A DNA stretch of 13,955 nucleotides from a virus (lineage: Duplodnaviria > Heunggongvirae > Uroviricota > Caudoviricetes): positions 1 to 13,955 of IMG/VR virus record IMGVR_UViG_3300012275_000032; one strand, 5' to 3'. The notes under the pieces were generated by a model that was not told the DNA's origin, ran no database searches, and saw only the letters and a program-made list of their open reading frames with translations. How positions within the stretch are numbered: position 1 is the first letter of the stretch; every line of letters starts with the position of its first letter. The translations under genes were made by a program, and so were the position numbers. This document shows, in pieces, positions 6,614 through 11,895 of the stretch.

Positions 6614-6820
6614 ATGCTGAACCTCGATTGTGTTCCAATCTCAACTTATTGCAAAGAAACTGGCGAAACTCCTGAAGCAATAAACAAACGTGTACAGCGC
6701 GGTGTTTGGCGTGAAGGTGTTCAGGTTTTAAAGGTTGAAGGCGTTAAGGAGAGGTGGATTGATCTTAGTGAGGTTGCAAAATGGGCCAGACAAAACTGCT
6801 CAAACTACCGCGCGGCGTAA
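6614..6820 (+). CDS. Excisionase-like protein (Xis), 68 aa from the ATG at 6614 (the ORF track begins at GTG 6602)
   Basis: Small basic protein immediately upstream of the integrase and overlapping it by 40 nt, the classic xis-int arrangement. GGAG (6604-6607) about 6 nt upstream of the ATG at 6614. Confidence 0.55.
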   Translation: MLNLDCVPISTYCKETGETPEAINKRVQRGVWREGVQVLKVEGVKERWIDLSEVAKWARQNCSNYRAA

Positions 6821-7977
6821 CAATCAGGAAACACCGCCAGGGCGAAACGATCAATATAACTTTCACCTACAAAGGAGTTAGATGTCGTGAGCCTCTTTCC
6901 AATCTGGAAGTAACACCAAAGAACATTAAATACGCCGAGCGCACACTCGGCGAAATTCATAATAAGATCGAAAGGGGAACATTCATTTATGCGGAATATT
7001 TTCCCCGTTCTGCTCGTTTGAAAATTTTTGGTAATGCTGCTGCAGGCAAAACGGTAAAAATGTACCTGGACGAATACCTTGAAATCTGCGAAACGAGAAA
7101 ACTTTCACCATCTACGATTGGTGGTTATAAAAAATGCCGTAGTGCGTTAGCCTCACTCCACATTTGCCCTGCAAGTGAATTAACACCAGCAATCCTGAAA
7201 GCGTGGATTCAAAGCCAAAAAACGACCTTAAAAACCATTCGCAACCAGTTATCTTTCCTGCGGTCAGCACTTGATGAAGCCGTAACCGATGGGGTACTTC
7301 AAATTAATCCCGTATCGTTAGTAACTGCTTCGCGCTACCAAAGTGATAAGTCAGAAGCAGAAAGCAGCTACGTGGTTGATCCGCTATCACCAGCAGAAGT
7401 TGATGCATTACTAGCAGCAGCCGGAAACAAACAATGGGAGAATCTGTTCCGGTTTGCTATACATACGGGCCTGCGTAGTTCTGAATTATGTGCCCTTCGA
7501 TGGCGTGATATCGACTTTGTTGGAAAAACTGCCCATGTCCAGAGCGCAAGTGTTGTCGGTGTTATCAAAGGAACAAAGACAAAAGCCGGTACTCGTAAAG
7601 TTGAACTGACAGAAGAGGCAATGTTGGCGCTGATAAACCAGAAGCCATTTACATTCATGAAGGATGCTACTGTCTTTGAAGATCCAAAGACCAATAAGCC
7701 TTGGGCAAGTGCTGATGCAATCAGGAAAAAAGCATGGGTGCCAACATTGCGAAAAGCAGGTATTCGTTACAGAAACCCATATCAAACCAGGCATACATTC
7801 GCCACCAGCCATATCAGCCGAGGAGCAAACCTGTTTTGGCTTGCAGCTCAAATGGGGCATAAAGGGCCGGAAATGCTTTTCAGGCATTATGGTTCGTATC
7901 TCGTAGACTATGATGGCAAGACAGCTTGTAAGGACCAAGTATCAAAAAATCCGGAGAACATGAAAATTGAGAAGTAA
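6781..7977 (+). CDS. Tyrosine site-specific integrase (lambda family, with N-terminal arm-binding domain), 398 aa
   Basis: N-terminus LPRGVTIRKH...FTYKGVRCREPL resembles the arm-binding (DUF3596-type) domain. Catalytic motifs present: TGLRSSEL (Arg), KTKAG (Lys), RHTFATSH (His-x-x-Arg), GH...FRHYGSY (His, Tyr). GAGG Shine-Dalgarno upstream. Confidence 0.9.
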   Translation: MGQTKLLKLPRGVTIRKHRQGETINITFTYKGVRCREPLSNLEVTPKNIKYAERTLGEIHNKIERGTFIYAEYFPRSARLKIFGNAAAGKTVKMYLDEYLEICETRKLSPSTIGGYKKCRSALASLHICPASELTPAILKAWIQSQKTTLKTIRNQLSFLRSALDEAVTDGVLQINPVSLVTASRYQSDKSEAESSYVVDPLSPAEVDALLAAAGNKQWENLFRFAIHTGLRSSELCALRWRDIDFVGKTAHVQSASVVGVIKGTKTKAGTRKVELTEEAMLALINQKPFTFMKDATVFEDPKTNKPWASADAIRKKAWVPTLRKAGIRYRNPYQTRHTFATSHISRGANLFWLAAQMGHKGPEMLFRHYGSYLVDYDGKTACKDQVSKNPENMKIEK

Positions 7978-8080
7978 AACGCCCGATAGCACTAGCCCCC
8001 CTTCGCAAAACAGTAAAGCTTACAAGAATGTTAGCAGGATGATGAGGATAGTGTACAATGGTTTTAGTGTGCATTAAATG

Positions 8081-8120
8081 CAAAGATTTGACGTTTTTTG
8101 TCAAATTTGTGCTATAAAAT
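8081..8120 (+). promoter_or_regulatory. Promoter with extended -10 and overlapping dyad symmetry, upstream of the defence gene pair
   Basis: TGcTATAAA extended -10 (8110-8118). TTGACG (8088-8093) is a -35-like hexamer at non-optimal spacing. Imperfect inverted repeat CAAAGATTTGAC-N7-GTCAAATTTGTG (8081-8111). AAGGG Shine-Dalgarno before the ATG at 8168. Confidence 0.45.
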
Positions 8121-8167
8121 CACTTTTAGTGGTTTTTAAGCTATGGGAAGTTAAAAGGGTATAAATT

Positions 8168-9433
8168 ATGTTGATTGAGTTTACAGTACAAAACTATAAA
8201 TCTATTTCAGAGAAACAAACACTGAGTTTAGTTGCATCAAAACTTAACGATTTGCCTAATAATCTGTTCAGTATTGATGAACCTAAATCTCTTGAATTGC
8301 TTAAAAGTGCTGTGATTTATGGCCCTAATGCTGCCGGAAAATCAAACATTATTAACGCTATTACAACTATGGCTGAACTTATTGTCCGGTCTGCTACAGG
8401 TTATAAAAGTGGTGATAAACTTGATATCACGCCTTTTAGACTAGACTCAAAGAAGATTAATCAACCATCTGAATTTGAAATTAACTTTATTTCCGAAGGC
8501 ATCAGATACCAGTATGGTTTTTCTGCAACAGAAGATTTTATTCACGACGAATGGTTATTTGCATTCCCCAAAGGCAGACCACAAAAATGGTTTTTACGTC
8601 TATGGGATGAAGAAAAACAAACCCATGAATGGGAGTTGGGGCCATCGTTGACAGGAGAAAAACAAACATGGTTGAAATCAACTAGGCCTAATGCGCTCTT
8701 TCTTTCTACAGCGGTACAATTAAACAGTGTACAACTAAAACCTGTATACGATTGGTTTTATTACAAAGTTAAATTTACTGAATTAACAGGTTGGGATAGT
8801 GATTACAGTGCAAAGCAATGCTTAAATGATAAGAAAGATGAGATTCTCAATTTTTTAAAAGCTGCCGATGTAGGTATTGATGACATTCATGTAACAAAAG
8901 AAAAATTCAATCCCAATGCTCTTCCTGATGATATGCCTGCAGCCATCAAGGAACTAGTGATTAAGAATATGCAAGGCAAGGAAGAATATGTCATTAAAAC
9001 ACTTCATAATAATGAGGATGGAGAGCCAATTCCATTCGATTTAAAAGATGAATCGCATGGAACTAGAAAAATCTTTAGTTTCGCGGGTCCCTTATCACAT
9101 TCACTCGAGACAGGAAACATCCTGTTTATTGATGAATTAAATGATAACTTACACCCCAAATTAGTTGAGTTTATTGTAGGTTTGTTTCACGATAAAAATA
9201 TCAATAAGAATGGTGCCCAGTTAATCTTTACAACTCATGAGACGTCTATTTTAAATCAAGATGTTTTCAGACGAGATCAGATTTGGTTTGTAGAAAAAGA
9301 CAATTCAAAGCAAACAAATCTTTTCCCACTTACGGATTTTAGTCCAAGAAAAGGAAGGGAGAATTTAGAAGCTTCTTATCTTGACGGTAGATATGGGGCT
9401 TTACCACTCATTGGGAAATGGGAGAGATATTAA
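8168..9433 (+). CDS. ABC/AAA_21-type ATPase of a two-gene defence module (AbiLi / AriA / OLD-N-terminal-like), 421 aa
   Basis: Walker A GPNAAGKS (nt 8321-8344), Walker B ILFIDELNDNLHP, H-loop-like IFTTHE. AT-rich codon usage. Stop TAA (9431-9433) overlaps the partner ATG. Confidence 0.85.
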   Translation: MLIEFTVQNYKSISEKQTLSLVASKLNDLPNNLFSIDEPKSLELLKSAVIYGPNAAGKSNIINAITTMAELIVRSATGYKSGDKLDITPFRLDSKKINQPSEFEINFISEGIRYQYGFSATEDFIHDEWLFAFPKGRPQKWFLRLWDEEKQTHEWELGPSLTGEKQTWLKSTRPNALFLSTAVQLNSVQLKPVYDWFYYKVKFTELTGWDSDYSAKQCLNDKKDEILNFLKAADVGIDDIHVTKEKFNPNALPDDMPAAIKELVIKNMQGKEEYVIKTLHNNEDGEPIPFDLKDESHGTRKIFSFAGPLSHSLETGNILFIDELNDNLHPKLVEFIVGLFHDKNINKNGAQLIFTTHETSILNQDVFRRDQIWFVEKDNSKQTNLFPLTDFSPRKGRENLEASYLDGRYGALPLIGKWERY

Positions 9434-10119
9434 TGGGAAGCGAAGATCTGTTCAAAAAAAGAAAGGCTCGGCGTAATAATGAATTCAAACGAGTTAGTAA
9501 AGCACGAGCTCAAATGAAGAAAATTCTTATCGTCTGTGAGGGAGAGAAGACTGAGCCCGCATATTTTACAGATTTTATAAAACATTGCCGTATAAGCACG
9601 GCAAGCATAGTTGAGATTTCTGGAGAGTGCGGCTCAAGCCCTATGAATGTGGTATCTTGGGCAAAAGAAAAATATAATACGGAAAAAAAAAGGAGCGACC
9701 CTTATGATAAGGTTTATTGTGTCTTTGATAGAGACGCTCACCCTAACTATGATGAAGCTCTTAGCAGGATTAATTCCTTAAATCCAAAAGGGATTTTTGT
9801 TGCTATAACTTCCATACCATGTTTCGAGTACTGGCTGATACTACATTTTGGATACACCCGAAAATCATTTTCACCTCAGAAAGGCAAAAGTGAAGGCGCA
9901 CAAATGCTAGCTGAGTTAAAAAAATACATGCCAGATTATGAGAAAAAGGCATCAGGTGTATTTAATAAATTGCAAGATCGGCTCGATACGGCATTAATCA
10001 ATGCTAAAAGAGTCGAAGATGCCGCCAAAAAAGACGGTTCGATAAATCCTTCAACTAAAGTTGGCGCTTTGATTACAGATCTAATTAACATTCGTGATGA
10101 CTTTGAAAATGAGAAGTAA
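9433..10119 (+). CDS. RloB-like / Toprim-like partner protein (AbiLii-like), 228 aa from the ATG at 9433 (the ORF track begins at 9418)
   Basis: TAATG stop-start overlap with the ATPase gene and GGGAG Shine-Dalgarno (9419-9425). Basic N-terminal tail, then ILIVCEGEKTEPAYF (Toprim Glu, nt about 9526-9570) and a downstream FDRDAH (DxD) motif, the RloB-family signature as recalled. Confidence 0.8.
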   Translation: MGSEDLFKKRKARRNNEFKRVSKARAQMKKILIVCEGEKTEPAYFTDFIKHCRISTASIVEISGECGSSPMNVVSWAKEKYNTEKKRSDPYDKVYCVFDRDAHPNYDEALSRINSLNPKGIFVAITSIPCFEYWLILHFGYTRKSFSPQKGKSEGAQMLAELKKYMPDYEKKASGVFNKLQDRLDTALINAKRVEDAAKKDGSINPSTKVGALITDLINIRDDFENEK

Positions 10120-10244: not shown

Positions 10245-10266
10245 GACGCGGGTTCAACTCCCGCCA
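10245..10266 (+). other. Partial copy of the tmRNA (ssrA) 3' end: prophage/island att core (attR-like boundary)
   Basis: GACGCGGGTTCAACTCCCGCCAGC matches the T-arm and 3' acceptor strand of E. coli tmRNA (recalled as ...GGACGCGGGTTCAACTCCCGCCAGCTCCACCA). It then diverges (CCCCAATCA), and no tmRNA body lies upstream. Confidence 0.7.
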
Positions 10267-10400: not shown

Positions 10401-10427
10401 AAAGCCCGCTGATGCGGGCTTTTTTAT
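10401..10427 (+). terminator. Intrinsic terminator about 140 bp downstream of the att copy
   Basis: Stem AGCCCGC (10403-10409), loop TGAT, stem GCGGGCT (10414-10420), followed by TTTTTTATT. Confidence 0.6.

Positions 10428-10856: not shown

Positions 10857-11895
<1,039 letters not shown>

Follow-up and report, generated by a model that had tools for sequence, protein, structure and literature searches.

The window, that is, the whole stretch of 13,955 nt that was analysed, covers the right-hand end of a lambdoid prophage integrated at ssrA in E. coli. Pfam recognises in it, besides the tyrosine integrase gene int, genes for a cI-like repressor, a cII-like protein, Rha/Ash and a yfdQ-like DUF2303 protein. 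Behind int lie two further genes that form an AbiL pair (Table 1): the first encodes an AAA_21/AAA_15 ABC ATPase matching AbiLi, and the adjacent second one an RloB/Toprim-like protein matching AbiLii. The stop codon of abiLi overlaps the start codon of abiLii (TAATG, 9431-9435), which suggests that the two genes are translationally coupled. The prophage ends in a fragment of ssrA, and the annotation of phage LLS, which carries a tmRNA pseudogene/attP, is in line with ssrA as the attachment site. After attR, we found a strong intrinsic terminator (10401-10422, AAAGCCCGC-TGAT-GCGGGCTTT plus a T-run) and then the chromosomal genes glaH(csiD)-lhgO. The seeming truncation of glaH/csiD (from 10956) at 253 aa is an artefact of a masked N stretch and not the mark of a pseudogene; the run of 10 Ns at 11687-11696 stands for about 48 nt when compared with another E. 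coli (L002).

Table 1. Position of the main features between int and the right end of the prophage, with the evidence for each
Feature	Position	Strand	Evidence
Prophage tyrosine integrase (int), upstream of the cassette	6781..7977	+	Pfam Arm-DNA-bind_2 and Phage_integrase
-35-like hexamer TTAGCA of the predicted cassette promoter	8031..8036	+	Top promoter call of the region; G8034 invariant
TGTACAAT block, with the putative -10 TACAAT at 8054-8059	8052..8059	+	Near-invariant in relatives; best -10 score in the intergenic region
Conserved dyad core TTTGAC-N7-GTCAAA, centre 8096	8087..8105		Invariant bases in the alignment; family motif enrichment
-10 candidate of the initial annotation, TATAAAAT (TATAAA 8113-8118 or TAAAAT 8115-8120)	8113..8120	+	5.3-6.1 bits; unconserved
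Second leader hairpin (predicted), AAAATCAC-TTTTA-GTGGTTTTT	8116..8137	+	RNA fold of 8066-8180
Shine-Dalgarno-like AAGGG, 8 nt 5' of the abiLi ATG	8155..8159	+	GG(G/A) block kept in the alignment of relatives
abiLi, AAA_21/Rad50-like ABC ATPase, 421 aa	8168..9433	+	Pfam AAA_21 (1.3e-38); PADLOC AbiLi (4.2e-101)
abiLii, RloB/Toprim-like partner, 228 aa	9433..10119	+	Pfam RloB (1.1e-39); PADLOC AbiLii (3.2e-29); RefSeq annotation
ssrA (tmRNA) 3' fragment GACGCGGGTTCAACTCCCGCC, attR, right end of the prophage	10245..10265	+	Rfam tmRNA partial match; sequence

The integrase of the window is present in about 400 E. coli genomes, in about 390 with other cargo, and the AbiL pair stands behind it in 15 only. 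Similarity to prophages with other cargo breaks off at about 7892-7932, within the last 15-28 codons of int. In these other E. coli prophages (L002, L003, L004) the place between int and attR is taken by a gene for a 259-aa hypothetical protein, by an AAA ATPase together with a Dam methylase, or by three minus-strand genes including one for a STAS-like protein. Since the same integrase is followed by differing cargo, we consider the AbiL pair to be cargo of an int-attR hotspot. The cassette also occurs in P2-like hotspots that have no int gene, which points to independent mobility. The order int-abiLi-abiLii, with an intergenic region of 220-240 nt, recurs in several enterobacterial genera, with AbiLi identities of 76-86% (L166-L178, from Enterobacter, Cronobacter, other Enterobacteriaceae and metagenomes). 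These loci share a block, TTTTT(C/T)CTAAAAATGCT, upstream of the promoter that is missing from the window.

The intergenic region in front of abiLi contains an imperfect inverted repeat whose 12-nt arms, CAAAGATTTGAC (8081-8092) and GTCAAATTTGTG (8100-8111), are complementary at 10 of 12 positions and enclose a 7-nt spacer, GTTTTTT. Its perfect core is ATTTGAC (8086-8092)-N7-GTCAAAT (8100-8106), and a repeat-finding tool gives longer arms of 24 nt (8069-8092/8100-8123) that are 71% complementary. The initial annotation had described a 12-bp imperfect repeat that spans a TTGAC motif and has an extended -10, TGcTATAAA, embedded in it. The repeat itself was correctly seen, and TTGAC (8088-8092) indeed falls within the left arm. 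The string TGcTATAAA is also present (TG 8110-8111, TATAAA 8113-8118), but the 12-nt right arm includes no more of it than the TG, so that the hexamer adjoins the repeat and is not embedded in it.

Taken in the window alone, the repeat does not go beyond chance. When the 190-nt intergenic region was shuffled with its dinucleotides preserved, 8% of the shuffles held a repeat with 12-nt arms and at least 10 of 12 matches, and 15% held a perfect repeat with 7-nt arms. What goes beyond chance is the conservation of the repeat across homologous loci, described below. The whole window holds one other, weak, match to TTGAC-N7-GTCAA and the immunity (cI/cro) region none; since neither the rest of the window nor that region offers another good copy of the dyad, we rejected an operator of the prophage repressor. 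Sites for CRP and FNR have half-sites spaced by N6 and N4, respectively, and neither a CRP site (TGTGA-N6-TCACA) nor an FNR site (TTGAT-N4-ATCAA) fits the 7-nt spacing of the dyad, so both were rejected by inspection. No structured RNA family in Rfam matches 7978-8167 at E<=1. A perfect small palindrome, TGCAT-TAA-ATGCA, is found at 8070-8082, between the predicted transcription start and the dyad; it is not kept as such in relatives, where a loose pattern, GGTG..TTT.A..TG.G, recurs at this place.

The 15 E. coli genomes with the int-abiL junction are at least 99.7% identical and offer no useful variation for comparison. We built an alignment from the intergenic region between int and abiLi in the window and its counterparts in 12 relatives (AbiLi identity 67-86%), which include both int-adjacent loci from other enterobacterial genera and loci in P2-like hotspots. 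In these 13 loci TGTACAAT is invariant or nearly so in both contexts, and it is preceded, at a fixed spacing of 17 nt from the -10, by the -35-like variants TTAGCA, CTAGCA or GTAGTA. The dyad, TTTG(A)C-N7-G(T)C(A), is likewise invariant amid otherwise scrambled intergenic sequence, and TACAAT is separated from TTGAC by 27-28 nt in all but one of the nine distinct leaders. The region 8113-8120 is only moderately conserved, and the closest relatives (L167/L169, L170, L171/L172) have no TAnnnT hexamer there.

Promoter prediction points to the same upstream elements. The consensus scan, which allowed spacers of 16-18 nt, called TTAGCA-17-TACAAT at 8031-8059 (9 of 12 matches) and not a promoter at 8088-8118, and the position weight matrix scan ranked the former first, at 9.3 bits, against 5.3 bits for TTGACG-19-TATAAA and 6.1 bits for TTGACG-21-TAAAAT. 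The sequence at 8031-8059 thus joins near-consensus hexamers at 17 nt with conservation alongside the cassette across contexts, as would a sigma-70 promoter. At the downstream site, TATAAA has A2 and the upstream TG but carries A instead of T at position 6 (-7), and TAAAAT, the second-best -10 of the region in the matrix scan, has no TG, so neither qualifies as an extended -10; the spacings of 19 and 21 nt from TTGACG also lie outside the 16-18 nt range. From the position of the -10 we infer a transcription start near 8066. With the conserved promoter at 8031-8059, the centre of the dyad (8096) would therefore fall near +31, downstream of the likely start, and the dyad would be transcribed at about +21 to +40. 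The proposal of a dedicated promoter made in the initial annotation thus stands in so far as the cassette has promoter-like elements of its own, which travel with it into int-free contexts. The site chosen for it, 8088-8118, would be a weak or secondary promoter at best and is unconserved, and the conserved one is at 8031-8059; the likely promoter is thereby shifted about 55 nt upstream. An overlap of the promoter with the repeat is not supported, as the conserved pair of TGTACAAT and its -35 precedes the dyad by about 30 nt, and TATAAA/TAAAAT are not kept in the closest relatives. As for transcription from int, which the initial annotation had set against a dedicated promoter, the terminator scan found no terminator between the int stop codon (7977) and 8167, so read-through into the abiL pair is possible. 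The dyad, within 7978-8167, was accordingly not called as an intrinsic terminator; its stem is A+U-rich, with a U-tract before and an A-tract after it.

The leader may hold a second hairpin downstream of the dyad (Table 1), which may act as an attenuator or a stabiliser. Relatives L167, L171 and L173 have non-homologous hairpins at the corresponding place, that of L167, GGGCC-TTTAA-GGCCTTTT, being terminator-like. An Edwardsiella plasmid (L307) carries a similar AAAAATCACC-TTTTT-GGTGATTTTTT ahead of its abiLi.

The first hint that the dyad extends beyond this prophage family came from a P2-like Klebsiella phage whose AbiL pair, 68% identical at the DNA level and located in the P2 hotspot beside the portal gene, is preceded by an identical 17-mer, TTTGACGTTTTTTGTCA. 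We collected AbiLi homologues with their flanks from genomes, viral contigs and assemblies; the contig search listed mostly distant relatives, and close ones were added singly. The strict motif TTTTGAC-N7-GTCAAAA occurs with at least 11 of 14 matches in 50 of the 128 distinct upstream regions, compared with 1.5% of shuffles. A more general form, TTTTG-N11-CAAAA with at most one mismatch, stands 21-130 nt before the abiLi ATG in 70 of the 136 distinct collected loci, against a background of 1.0% among other windows of 110 nt and 1.5% among those rich in A+T. Over 860 kb, 73 of 151 matches to this form are located within 100 nt 5' of an abiLi ATG. The enrichment at this fixed place ahead of abiLi is thus 35-50-fold.

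The linkage of the dyad to abiL holds in Gamma-, Beta-, Delta- and Epsilonproteobacteria, Nitrospirae, Firmicutes and Bacteroidota, with the gene pair carried as lambdoid int-attR cargo, in P2-like hotspots or on plasmids. No third gene or regulator gene accompanies it, as no flanking ORF family is common to more than 12 of 99 loci; abiLi and abiLii are therefore the sole things inherited with the dyad. In the reverse direction, a search of IMG/VR with the strict pattern TTTTGAC-N7-GTCAAAA gave one match adjoining abiL among the first 120 listed, with spacers that are not A+T-rich. Among these 120 the pattern had no other recurrent association, and it is too short to be specific in such a collection. 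In the nearest relatives of the window the symmetry is limited to TGAC/GTCA, the right flank being T-rich and not A-rich. We regard the repeat as the form taken in the window by a symmetric motif that is found with abiL operons in many bacteria and looks functional through its conservation, not through the statistics of the window. Very probably, the dyad is a real regulatory site.

Its place relative to the predicted promoter differs by clade, at about -30, -18, +1, +20 or +30, all of these being consensus promoter predictions in A+T-rich DNA. The Klebsiella P2 clade has the same dyad offset as the window with another predicted promoter, CTGAAA-18-TAAAAT. The most numerous architectural class comprises 25 loci; its best predicted promoter is TTGAtt-16-CAtAAT, of which the dyad would fill the spacer and overlap the -10. 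In 5-7 loci, a predicted TTGAAA-17-TATTTT overlaps the left half-site.

Members of the dyad family share one layout, consisting of a T-tract, two or three specific bases, a 7-nt A+T-rich spacer, the complement of these bases and an A-tract. Among 93 distinct dyads, G5 is present in 86 and C17 in 83. The pair 6-16 is complementary in 54 of the 93, against 28.6 expected, a count that none of 5000 column shuffles reached, and the pair 7-15 in 44, against 31.5 expected; common descent among the loci inflates these figures, and an RNA stem would produce them just as a DNA palindrome would. A compensatory change to GGC...GCC can be seen in L173/L174. In diverged abiL families the architecture is the same and the core differs. 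Small ColE1-like plasmids of 3.9-5 kb from E. coli, Klebsiella and Enterobacter (L302, L308, L309) encode an AbiLi homologue of 28-31% identity with an RloB partner, and about 30 nt 5' of the ATG they carry a perfect dyad, TTTTTCGC-TTTTTTG-GCGAAAAA, the sequence further upstream being wholly different between the plasmids. A Variovorax dyad reads TTTTGCA-GATTTTG-TGCAAAA, and a Clostridium plasmid has TGTGAA-N3-TTCACA. Two abiL families with unlike cores, GAC/GTC and CGC/GCG, are thus found within E. coli.

As nothing but abiL is inherited with the dyad, the binder would most likely be the AbiLi/AbiLii complex itself. An autoregulatory operator might be expected to lie near the promoter of its operon, to be conserved among homologous operons and to belong to an operon that encodes a recognised DNA-binding domain; we observed the first two features and not the third. 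Neither AbiLi nor AbiLii has a canonical DNA-binding domain (HTH, RHH or AbrB), Pfam giving AAA_21/AAA_15 and RloB only, and sequence searches of the PDB with both proteins yielded no useful relative. The structural model of AbiLi (pLDDT 82) shows a Rad50/SMC-type head, with Septu PtuA and a retron ATPase as the closest solved relatives among defence proteins, and several of the Rad50/SMC head structures that it matches are DNA-bound complexes. In heads of this type, ATP engagement forms a two-fold dimer across which duplex DNA is bound. AbiLii carries a conserved basic N-terminal arm, MGSxDLFKKRKA, ahead of its Toprim core; in the window (9433-9530) this family-wide arm reads MGSEDLFKKRKARR... 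and is followed by the Toprim motif ILIVCEGEKTEP.

Considering all the above results, we propose that the AbiL cassette, inserted as cargo between int and attR, is equipped with a control region of its own. A sigma-70-type promoter, TTAGCA(8031-36)-17-TACAAT(8054-59), would start the transcript near 8066, and the dyad (8087-8105), about 30 nt downstream of this start, would be a DNA operator for a two-fold symmetric, probably dimeric, binder. We infer protein binding, the identity of the binder and the sign of the regulation from the arrangement of these elements: the likeliest binder would be the AbiLi/AbiLii complex, which might repress its own operon through occlusion or as a roadblock. We give this proposal as a whole an even chance of being right. 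The initial reading of the dyad as the operator of a dimeric regulator is in keeping with its conservation before abiLi in diverse loci, the compensatory changes between half-sites and the lack of a regulator gene alongside. On the other hand, an operator centred near +31 would be in an unusual place for a repressor.

In another arrangement, that of the initial annotation, the repeat would overlap the promoter of the operon. TTGACG (8088-8093) would then serve as the -35 and TATAAA or TAAAAT (8113-8120) as the -10, and a dimeric repressor on the dyad would occlude the -35. The sequence elements are there, TAAAAT scores well for the region, and elsewhere the left half-site TTGACA does form a well-spaced -35, 16-17 nt ahead of a good -10 (TTGACA-16-TAGACT in L018, TTGACA-17-CATACT in L016); several long-leader loci also have a TAnnnT about 18-19 nt past the dyad centre. 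Nevertheless, we consider the overlap unlikely in the window, given its long spacers, its low scores beside the upstream promoter, its absence from the consensus calls and the loss of the hexamer in L167/L169/L170/L171 while TGTACAAT stays invariant. An action of the dyad in the transcript appears unlikely to the same degree. In this case a 5'-UTR stem-loop, UUUGAC-N7-GUCAAA, would control mRNA stability, translation or processing, possibly as an RNA bound by AbiL. Such a role would agree with the transcription of the dyad from the conserved promoter, with the stable hairpin predicted for the window (-13 kcal/mol, z -4.75), with compensatory changes that preserve pairing and with an excess of G.T over A.C combinations; moreover AriB, the Toprim nuclease that is the effector of PARIS, a related ATPase-Toprim system, cleaves tRNA (PMC11464382). 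The stability is, however, not conserved: the hairpin of L092, the closest relative examined, reaches -3.7 kcal/mol (z -0.67), and RNAalifold on nine leaders keeps 5 pairs at -3.9 kcal/mol. The G.T excess comes largely from column composition, and we discarded this asymmetry as a means to tell RNA from DNA. We favour a DNA site because the dyad, lying between -35 and -10, would be untranscribed in the 25 loci of the largest class according to their predicted promoters, and because the sequence of the arms, with G5 and C17 kept across phyla, is conserved and not just their pairing.

Granting a DNA site, the protein on it could come from elsewhere: a global regulator or nucleoid protein of the host that reads T-tract/A-tract DNA, or the prophage repressor. 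The A+T-rich DNA with phased T and A tracts is like many nucleoid-protein sites, and neither AbiL protein has a recognisable DNA-binding domain. Yet the motif tracks abiL through many phyla and through lambdoid, P2-like and plasmid contexts, and both the wide range of hosts and the occurrence of GAC/GTC and CGC/GCG cores in one host species make a host factor less likely; the scarcity of further copies in the window and the immunity region and the misfit with the CRP and FNR spacings speak against it as well. We hold a binder other than AbiL to be quite improbable. The least probable reading, to which we give very little credence, is that the repeat has no function, being a chance palindrome in an A+T-rich intergenic region, with the family signal reflecting inherited promoter sequence. 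The shuffling results for the window alone and the abundance of the strict 14-base pattern in IMG/VR, mostly away from abiL among the first matches listed, speak for such a reading, but it has to face the enrichment at a fixed place before abiLi, the invariance of the core bases amid scrambled sequence, and the single symmetric architecture retained by unlike cores.

Returning to the promoter with a downstream operator, autoregulation might be part of phage sensing. In this extension, which we put forward as doubtful, the AbiL ATPase-Toprim complex would be a sequence-specific DNA binder without a classical domain, resting on its own 21-bp dyad through lineage-specific, co-evolved half-sites (GAC, GCA, CGC and others), and the complex would be driven off once its ATPase is engaged by a phage trigger such as a DNA mimic, as with PARIS. 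If true, sensing would be coupled to both the release of the effector and the de-repression of the operon. In the literature that we searched on AbiLi, AbiLii, RloA and RloB, neither a promoter nor an operator of abiL is described. A cis element of 21 bp that recurs across phyla with natural specificity variants is a cheap experimental handle, and annotators could use the dyad to tell where an abiL cassette begins on its 5' side when it sits in a prophage cargo hotspot.

Several known systems can be compared with this arrangement. MerR-type promoters have spacers of 19-20 bp with a dyad between -35 and -10. A promoter at 8088-8118 would resemble them, with its spacer of 19-21 nt and the dyad reaching in, but the dyad is centred toward the -35 side and not in mid-spacer, and the -10 is unconserved. 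No MerR-family gene is present in the cassette or recurs in its flanks, and the arrangement does not count as MerR-type. The operators of type II toxin-antitoxin systems are palindromes over -35/-10 that are bound by the antitoxin or by the toxin-antitoxin complex. The abiL dyads share with them a short palindrome that adjoins or covers the core promoter in an operon of two genes with a toxic effector, and half-sites that co-vary with the cognate system. In the clade of the window, however, the site would lie about 30 nt past the likely start and not over the promoter. In addition, AbiLi is an ABC ATPase and not a small HTH or RHH antitoxin, and in one published test AbiLi of F. nucleatum did not neutralise the toxicity of AbiLii (PMC3985639); consequently, toxin-antitoxin logic is not established for AbiL.

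AbiE (abiEi/abiEii) is an abortive-infection operon autoregulated through inverted repeats in its promoter, where AbiEi binds the operators IR1 and IR2 (Dy et al. 2014, PMC3985639). It resembles abiL as a bicistronic abortive-infection operon with an inverted repeat at the promoter and similar repeats upstream of homologous loci. The two differ in that negative autoregulation by an operon product has been shown for AbiE, with binding and repression demonstrated for AbiEi and its winged HTH, whereas AbiL is known here from sequence and has no recognisable domain of this kind. The arms of the AbiE repeats measure 11-23 bp and stand 3-27 nt apart, and the abiL dyad is a compact 21-bp site.

AbiL/RloAB pairs, relatives of PARIS, Gabija and Old, are widespread defence modules that combine an ATPase with a Toprim protein. 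The literature searched gives no account of their control, and in it we also found no description of a conserved promoter-proximal dyad or of autoregulation in OLD-family or ABC-ATPase and Toprim systems. With PARIS AriAB, Gabija GajA, P2 Old and Septu PtuA they have in common the Rad50-like AAA_21 ATPase (AbiLi), the Toprim-like protein (AbiLii) and the same prophage and satellite hotspots. GajA, of the OLD family, is a sequence-specific DNA endonuclease (PMC8136825), so that such proteins can read DNA sequence, although the site of GajA is a cleavage target and not an operator. The dyad in front of abiL bears both on how the expression of a toxic effector is restrained and on the possible reading of DNA sequence by an ATPase-Toprim complex.
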